Origin: Escherichia coli
GTDB taxonomy: Bacteria > Pseudomonadota > Gammaproteobacteria > Enterobacterales > Enterobacteriaceae
Assembly (NCBI RefSeq): GCF_003334815.1
Contig: NZ_QOWO01000097.1
Reading direction: 5' to 3' (one strand)
Length of the DNA stretch: 1,692 nt
Within the stretch, counting starts at the first letter, position 1, and the number at the start of each line of letters is the position of its first letter. The notes under the pieces were generated by a model. The model was not told the origin of the DNA and did no database searches. It saw nothing but the letters and a program-made list of their open reading frames with translations. This document shows positions 593-1,319 of this stretch, in pieces. A program made the translations under genes and the position numbers.

Positions 593-749
593 GGAGGGGA
601 GTGCACTGCGCACGGACTAATCGGAACCTATCGGCTGAGCGATATCGATCCGGAAGCGTATCTGCCTCATATACTGAGAGTTTTGCCGGAATGGCCTTCC
701 AACCTGTTGATGAACTACCTCCATGGAACGTAGTGCTCACCAATAAATA
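593..749 (+). pseudogene. Second IS66-family transposase 3' relic, frameshifted
   Basis: One frame gives GGECTAHGLIGTYRLSDIDPEAYLPHILRVLPEWPSN, paralleling [39 protein letters not shown] in the first fragment. After about position 703 the homology continues only in the +1 frame (PVDELPPWNVVLTNK*, TAA at 747-749), paralleling [15 protein letters not shown]. This implies a 1-bp deletion. No clean ...CGCTTAC terminus follows. Confidence 0.6.
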
Positions 750-791
750 AGCGTCATGCCTAACTTAAAGTAAATAGAATAGCAGATATGC

Positions 792-1319
792 TTAATCCTT
801 TTTGTTGAGTGTCACTGGACCATAGACCATAAAAACACAAGTTGAACCAGATACTCCCCTATAACCTCCCTGTCCATCGCCGAGATAACAGGCAAGAGCA
901 GTAAATTCCCAGGCATCATCCATAGACGCAGCAATTTTGCGTGTGGTTAGTGTTTCTTTGCCATATTGCTCACCAAAGTCGTGCACGCGCCGGGCATATT
1001 CTCCAAGTGACTCGCTGACTGACGGATGGTCCCACCCCCATAACCAGGTGCTGTCTTCAGTATCGTAAGTGCCAACCACTTGAACAGGTGCTGTGACCAT
1101 GATCTCTTTTTCATCATTGGTGAAGGTGATTGTACCTGTATTAAGATCAACATCCCACGCAGCAGTATCAAGTCCCCACATTTCTATAGCGGCTTGTGTG
1201 AGTAACTGCATTTCGTTATTCGCTCGTGCAATTGTGAGATCTGGCTCTGAAAGAATTGCTGTGTTAGCACTGGAATCTTTATTCTTTCTGCCAAAAAGCT
1301 TCTTGAATAAATTAGTCAT
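792..1319 (-). CDS. Hypothetical protein, 175 aa, family not recognised; predicted soluble
   Basis: Uninterrupted minus-strand ORF. ATG at 1319..1317 is preceded by GGGAGAG with about 5-7 nt spacing. TAA stop at 794..792. The ORF track's 192-aa version begins at an upstream TTG (1370..1368) with no Shine-Dalgarno, so the ATG start is preferred. Protein: MTNLFKKLFGRKNKDSS...WDVDLNTGTITFTNDEKEIMVTAPVQVVGTYDTEDSTWLWGWDHPSV...DDAWEFTALACYLGDGQGGYRGVSGSTCVFMVYGPVTLNKKD. No long hydrophobic segment (no transmembrane helix or signal peptide evident). Confidence 0.75.
   Translation of the reverse strand: MTNLFKKLFGRKNKDSSANTAILSEPDLTIARANNEMQLLTQAAIEMWGLDTAAWDVDLNTGTITFTNDEKEIMVTAPVQVVGTYDTEDSTWLWGWDHPSVSESLGEYARRVHDFGEQYGKETLTTRKIAASMDDAWEFTALACYLGDGQGGYRGVSGSTCVFMVYGPVTLNKKD

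Follow-up and report, generated by a model that had tools for sequence, protein, structure and literature searches.

Insertion sequences of the IS66 family make an 8-bp target-site duplication, and an isoform of a named insertion sequence shares roughly at least 90% nucleotide identity with it (the ISfinder threshold). The terminal inverted repeat of the family ends in ...CGCTTAC (GTAAGCG... at the left end), and members with passenger genes downstream of the transposase have been described, an example of these tIS66 elements being ISPa75, which carries fosZ (PMC12888890). ISEc43-type elements, represented by WP_000080172.1 in Escherichia coli O104:H4 and by related copies on pIP1206 and on an E. 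marmotae plasmid, are intact IS66-family elements of ~2.5 kb.

The locus described here lies in a window of 1,692 nt (the whole stretch of DNA that was analysed), which is 100% identical to positions 63168-64859 of NZ_LT985321.1, the IncI1-type plasmid RCS85_pI of E. coli ECOR 3. Positions 601-756 on the plus strand are very probably a non-functional 3' remnant of an ISEc43-type IS66-family insertion sequence, made up of the last ~49 tnpC codons, the stop codon, and the first 6 nt of the terminal repeat region. Like the ISEc43-type elements, with which it shares 84-85% nucleotide and ~85% amino acid identity over these codons, the relic has the same stop codon and the same first 6 nt after it. 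Unlike them, it retains ~156 nt of the ~2.5 kb, carries two 1-nt deletions, and lacks tnpA, tnpB, the DDE region, and the centre of the right inverted repeat. The locus resembles tIS66 elements in that the 3' end of an IS66-family tnpC is followed by a gene not involved in transposition, but this gene is convergent, an enclosing pair of terminal repeats is not demonstrable, and sister relics point to an ancestor free of cargo.

Identity and reading frame of the remnant

Four intact ISEc43-type elements served as references, three plasmid copies (L004-L006) and a copy that PGAP names ISEc43 family (L009), and 601-756 was 83.5-85.5% identical to them at the nucleotide level (BLASTN E = 9e-43). 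A tblastn search of plasmids likewise returned intact IS66-family transposases ~85% identical to the relic peptide. For the protein comparisons, the two frames of the relic were joined into a 49-aa peptide with one residue, an arginine of our choice, inserted at 704/705. The joined peptide matched Pfam PF13817 (DDE_Tnp_IS66_C) over model positions 2-39 of 39 with an E value of 6.1e-11, to which the inserted arginine contributes a single column, and its alignment to the C-terminal 46 residues of the TnpC encoded by the other IS66-family copy in the window (copy 1) was free of gaps and ended at the same final residue, with 41% identity (E = 3e-14). The original prediction of a second, divergent IS66-family transposase 3' relic was therefore borne out, the similarity to IS66-family references being far beyond chance, with the relic assigned to the ISEc43-type lineage and copy 1 being ISCro1-like. 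Neither the 49-aa peptide nor a 53-aa relic peptide matched NCBIfam NF033517 (transpos_IS66), a miss that says little since this model mostly ends before the retained part (its end at model position 387 corresponds to residue 104 of 126 in copy 1); copy 1, for comparison, scored 132.8 bits on it.

The identity to the PGAP-named ISEc43-family copy is 84.3%, below the isoform threshold, and the alignments place the relic as a separate lineage at ~15% nucleotide divergence and not as an ISEc43 isoform. In two E. coli chromosomes (L002 and L003), PGAP labels the same bases [quoted passage not shown]. The relic is thus an ordinary IS pseudogene fragment that was already known from RefSeq annotation, and nothing we found contradicts this reading. 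It has kept neither tnpA nor tnpB nor the DDE catalytic region, and little or nothing of the terminal inverted repeat, and where a complete IS66 element would have its tnpA, tnpB, and full tnpC with the DDE domain, position 601 is preceded by DNA that belongs upstream of cdiB. A predicted 53-codon open reading frame with a GTG start (572-733) spans the relic. Searching the whole window against Rfam at permissive E-values found nothing, and a scan of 450-1450 returned no terminators and promoter-like sites at background level. We infer that the relic can no longer transpose, specifies no useful product, and serves no purpose for the neighbouring gene.

When 572-790 is translated, one frame gives ...GLIGTYRLSDIDPEAYLPHILRVLPEWPSN and the +2 register gives PVDELPPWNVVLTNK* from 703; continued to their ends, the frame from 572 reads ...GGECTAHGLIGTYRLSDIDPEAYLPHILRVLPEWPSNLLMNYLHGT* and the frame from 574 reads ...PVDELPPWNVVLTNK* from 703 onward. 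Alignment with the four intact elements places a 1-nt deletion at 704/705, where the relic has AACC-TGTT against AACCGTGTT or AACCGAGTT, and the missing base falls in the Arg codon of ...EWPSN-R-VDELLPWN. The frameshift that had been proposed near 703 is thus confirmed, and restoring one base there gives a continuous C-terminus that runs ungapped to the last residue of copy 1. A single frameshift was, however, too few. The same alignments revealed another 1-nt deletion at 608/609 (GCACTG-CGCACGG against GCACTGTTGTACGG), which was absent from the first account and whose restoration keeps the upstream A-L in frame. With both bases restored, a single frame, AL?HGLIGTYRLSDIDPEAYLPHILRVLPEWPSN?VDELPPWNVVLTNK*, ends at the same codon as in ISEc43-type elements, the original tnpC stop codon TAA lying at 748-750, and 41 of its 48 residues are identical to theirs. 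Of the 20-22 nucleotide differences to ISEc43-type elements, 13-14 are at third codon positions, which argues that most of the divergence accrued in a separate parent lineage whose gene still worked. The indels and the seven amino acid changes would then be later damage.

Edges of the remnant and the surrounding elements

The left edge of the relic is at 601. It had been set at 593, where GGAGGGGA was read as G-G-E, but these bases proved to be cdiB-upstream sequence. Positions 498-600 are intergenic DNA that is not IS66-derived and is 94-99% identical to the conserved DNA upstream of cdiB in the contact-dependent inhibition operon of genomes that have no IS66 relic after it, and ~540 further complete E. 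coli genomes carry 498-600 at 90-99% identity with different DNA following. The 103 nt, including the terminal ...TACGGAGGGGA, are found upstream of cdiB in hundreds of genomes, ST131 among them, with no IS66 sequence after them. Because the cdiB-upstream DNA ends identically in these genomes, the G-G-E at 593-601 is a coincidental mimic of IS66. The pseudogene annotated by PGAP in strain 88-3493 starts at L002 6093, equivalent to window 590, and takes in this coincidental "GGE". A weak MAFFT alignment had suggested 573-600 as a more diverged piece of tnpC; this candidate was rejected, the same bases being present upstream of cdiB without an IS66 relic.

Two chromosomal contexts clarify how this edge is built. 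On the chromosome of strain 88-3493 (L002), homology to the window starts exactly at 498, where the ISCro1-like element ends, and 498-600 is there the DNA upstream of cdiB. On chromosomes of the commoner, L003 type, homology starts at 601 and is preceded by 34 more nt of genuine tnpC (…VFFGS…). Since the L003-type loci keep these 34 nt, the arrangement in the window is a secondary fusion at 600/601.

At the right edge, homology to the intact elements continues 6 nt beyond the stop codon, through GCGTCA (751-756), and then stops, whereas the intact elements have 24 more nt up to ...CGCTTAC, a motif also present in copy 1 at 491-497. Only GCGTCA is clearly kept of this terminus, and the claim that the relic has no recognisable end was essentially right, as the canonical 30-nt terminus is not intact. 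Positions 757-764 on the plus strand, TGCCTAAC, are perhaps its degenerate tip, to be compared with TGCTAAC in a sister relic (L011) and CGCTTAC in intact elements. In that sister relic the terminal repeat is full length but degenerate and ends ...TAATGCTAAC, and window 755-764 reads CATGCCTAAC. These alignments are suggestive only of a 16-17-nt deletion in the centre of the repeat with a degenerate tip ending at 764; our own rough estimate that the tip resemblance arises by chance is ~0.02. The terminus may therefore have been lost by a deletion inside the inverted repeat and not by one running outwards. The original element's left end is gone at every locus examined.

The convergent gene (792-1319, minus strand) encodes a DUF6882 protein of 175 aa that matches Pfam PF21813 with an E value of 1.2e-33 over model positions 12-139 of 142 and with 10 residues to spare, and homologues on Streptomyces plasmids, at 31-33% identity, align to its very last residue. 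Judged from these alignments, the coding sequence is complete and not truncated. The distance of ~40 bp that had been given between the relic and the stop codon of this gene (792-794) agrees with the 41 nt counted from the relic's own stop codon, but homology runs on to 756 and leaves 35 nt. We found no support for the further proposal that the deletion which removed the relic's end defines the 3' boundary of the 175-aa gene, the domain being essentially complete and separated from the relic by a spacer of 27-35 nt. The annotated start of the gene differs among records, most giving the 175-aa protein (WP_000182867.1, start 1319) and the ECOR 3 plasmid a 184-aa version (WP_001312357.1, start 1346). 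Plasmid-borne DUF6882 relatives outside Escherichia were seen only in Streptomyces and Comamonas (29-33% identity), and one non-Escherichia relative (L010) is likewise convergent with an IS gene, istB of IS21.

Copy 1 occupies 78-497 on the plus strand as the 3' 420 nt of an IS66-family element. It matches NF033517 with an E value of 1.6e-38, has its tnpC stop codon at 465-467 and a right inverted repeat that ends ...CGCTTAC at 497, and is named "IS66-like element ISCro1 family transposase" by PGAP. Its left part is cut at 77/78 by the insertion of an IS3-family element, and plasmids that lack this IS3 copy match 78-1618 only. The left end of the IS3-family element, pointing out of the window, fills 1-77 on the minus strand as an inverted repeat of 1612-1692 and includes the first codons of orfA (MTKNTRF, minus strand). 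The left end of a second copy, inverted with respect to the first, fills 1619-1692 on the plus strand. Both copies are annotated in NZ_LT985321.1, where the element at 1-77 is named "IS3 family transposase", and we take both to be IS629/IS1203-like. The right-hand copy is a simple insertion, with a target duplication of 3-4 bp (GGAG/GAG). A handful of other plasmids from E. coli and E. fergusonii, none with the IS3-family copies, match the stretch between the two, 78-1618, at 99.6-100% identity, and the exact IS3-bracketed arrangement occurs in a single PLSDB record, the ECOR 3 plasmid RCS85_pI. The inverted IS3-family left ends bracket the end of copy 1, the relic, and the DUF6882 gene in an arrangement like that of a composite transposon.

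A further IS66-type sequence lies beyond the window on plasmid pMB7355_2 (L001). At 6611-6644 of this record, equivalent to window 1688-1721 and between the DUF6882 gene and lutC, there is a solitary, near-palindromic 34-nt IS66-type end, GTAAGGCATTAACGGAGTCCGTATTGACGCTTAC, which shares 85% identity with the terminal repeat of ISEc43 and lacks an 8-bp duplication at its borders. It is present in plasmids without the right-hand IS3 copy and may be what is left of a collapsed mini-element, or else mark where a third IS66 relic ends.

Sister relics, rival readings, and the order of events

A megablast probe across 704/705 detected this deletion in 144 complete genomes, where it occupies three kinds of locus. 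These are the locus beside DUF6882 (A; L003 5967-6165), one beside an inovirus-type Gp2 gene, as in 13P460A (B; L011 1427-1623), and one near rarD, as in YC21-F17 (C; L012 1471-1682). The fragments are ~190-215 nt long, and their 5' break in tnpC falls at 2399 in A, 2399 in B, and 2403, 4 nt later, in C (coordinates of the ISEc43 extract). The 704/705 deletion is common to all three, the 608/609 deletion is common to A and C, and B carries further private deletions. Relics B and C are 81-91% identical to relic A, the copies differing by 10-20%, but unlike A they have a full-length, degenerate terminal repeat directly after the stop codon, and the flanks of the three loci are unrelated on both sides. 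As the 704/705 deletion is shared with two unrelated loci, the frameshift predates the locus in the window and is not the result of local decay; the fragment had been truncated, too, by the time it reached this place. Relic A is nearer to C in its 5' half and nearer to B in its 3' half, which hints at recombination between relics.

An exact scan for the frameshift motif GGCCNTCCAACCTGTTGAYGAAC gave 0 matches in 100,044 species-representative genomes (GTDB). The same scan of metagenomes gave 12, of which 9 correspond to the three known relic loci, all with the same truncation point; the others (L021, L023, and L025) were set aside as chance matches in unrelated high-GC genes of soil-type contigs. 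A motif of 22 specified bases still gives chance matches at this database size. A full-length parent with the 704/705 deletion was not found in the 5,426 complete E. coli genomes, the 100,044 species representatives, or the metagenome collection. One metagenome contig (L018) carries at 5735-6525 a piece of ~800 nt that is 90.5% identical to the 5' part of ISEc43, ~2.3 kb from a type-A relic and in opposite orientation to it.

The recurrence of the fragment raises the question of whether a dead, 5'-truncated, frameshifted IS66 right end of 190-215 nt has been dispersed as one unit over at least three unrelated E. coli loci, which we consider improbable. A near-identical 5' break, the shared 704/705 deletion (with 608/609 also shared by A and C), flanks that are unrelated on both sides, and the absence of a full-length parent from the E. 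coli genomes, species representatives, and metagenome collection would all suit a 3'-terminal fragment that was copied or mobilised after its truncation, by one-ended or trans-acting transposition or by repeated recombination, or that was kept for a non-coding function. This explanation nevertheless seems very unlikely to us. The inspected sequences showed no target-site duplications around copies A, B, and C, and nothing like a left repeat at the 5' break, so a MITE was also rejected; the 10-20% divergence and private deletions are what neutral decay would be expected to produce, and no Rfam match, terminator, or promoter signal was found. Three loci are moreover a small sample, and their differing surroundings may reflect turnover of flanks within islands and prophage remnants. 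Such turnover would be the dull explanation for the fragment standing at three places, and some form of one-ended copying the interesting one. Were it true, spread as a unit would mean either that one-ended IS fragments can be copied by an unrecognised route, whether trans-mobilised from an internal pseudo-end or multiplied by recombination, or that the IS66 right end is under selection for some non-coding role.

The association with DUF6882 could also be read in another way, with the gene as passenger of an old tIS66 element whose actual right end would be the 34-nt repeat of 1688-1721, on the far side of the cargo. Passenger genes in this position are known from the IS66-family members cited above (PMC12888890), the relic and DUF6882 are always found together, homology to ISEc43-type elements ends 6 nt past the stop codon, and an IS66-like terminal sequence does follow ~930 nt further right in L001. 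Relics B and C, however, share the break and the deletion, yet in both the stop codon is immediately followed by the terminal repeat and no cargo intervenes, which indicates that the common ancestor had no passenger. In addition, relic B has a repeat tip similar to 757-764, and in L003-type chromosomes the shared module reaches only to window 1525, short of the distal repeat. No intact tnpABC-DUF6882 element was present in complete E. coli genomes or PLSDB plasmids, and none of these placed DUF6882 between tnpC and a right inverted repeat belonging to the same element. There is accordingly only a slim chance that DUF6882 was a passenger. Chance or low-complexity resemblance to IS66, of which the coincidental "GGE" in unrelated cdiB-upstream DNA is a small instance, has a vanishing probability as the source of 601-756 and is ruled out by the BLASTN (9e-43) and Pfam (6.1e-11) E values, the conserved stop position, and the 41 of 48 conserved residues. 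We thus return to the reading of the relic as the decayed 3' end of an ISEc43-type element.

Copy 1 resembles this remnant in family and C-terminal domain, and the two proteins align ungapped to the last residue at 41% amino acid identity. It differs in belonging to another lineage, with 69% nucleotide identity over 39 nt only, in its intact reading frame and right inverted repeat, and in its later arrival. Over 601-1000, the relic and DUF6882 occur together at at least 99.8% identity in 53 of the 5,426 complete E. coli genomes, among which the DUF6882 gene was never seen without the relic. This identity fits recent shared descent, and selection is not needed to account for it, though it may have played a part. 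Chromosomes without the ISCro1-like copy make up 49 of the 53 carriers, and in such chromosomes the relic is 100% identical; the ISCro1-like copy adjoins at 497/498 on just a few plasmids. The proposal that the two IS66-family 3' ends stem from separate acquisitions is upheld by these 49 carriers and by the low, short nucleotide identity, and on this evidence the relic is to be regarded as older than the ISCro1-like copy and independent of it.

The likely course of events would begin with a truncated, already frameshifted fragment coming to adjoin DUF6882. In one lineage, a rearrangement at 600/601 would have cost the fragment another 34 nt and joined it to cdiB-upstream DNA, the order of these two steps being deduced from which locus retains more tnpC sequence. 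In the lineage that went on to plasmids, an ISCro1-like IS66 element would then have arrived at 497/498, which is 103 nt upstream, and in the ECOR 3 plasmid 77/78 and 1618/1619 would each have received an IS3-family copy. The complete ISCro1-like element on pMB7355_2, with ends at 2717 and 5420 of L001, is not flanked by an 8-bp target duplication (TATTCCAC on the left and GCTGAAAT on the right). This indicates that the ISCro1-like copy did not get there by simple insertion but marks where recombination joined an F-type backbone, on the finO side, to a captured chromosomal segment with the relic, DUF6882, lutCBA, and a lactate permease.

Meaning of the relic for the DUF6882 module

For annotation, the locus carries two caveats, namely that the "GGE" start is coincidental and that there are two frameshifts instead of one. 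Its wider curiosity is limited to the same truncated, frameshifted fragment standing at three unrelated loci with no full-length parent found. The relic itself is a useful historical marker of limited importance. It records that an old ISEc43-type scar accompanied the DUF6882 module on its travels and that this module passed between chromosomal islands, in the CDI and lactate-utilisation region, and IncF and IncI plasmids, with the ISCro1-like and IS3-family elements being layered onto the module afterwards.
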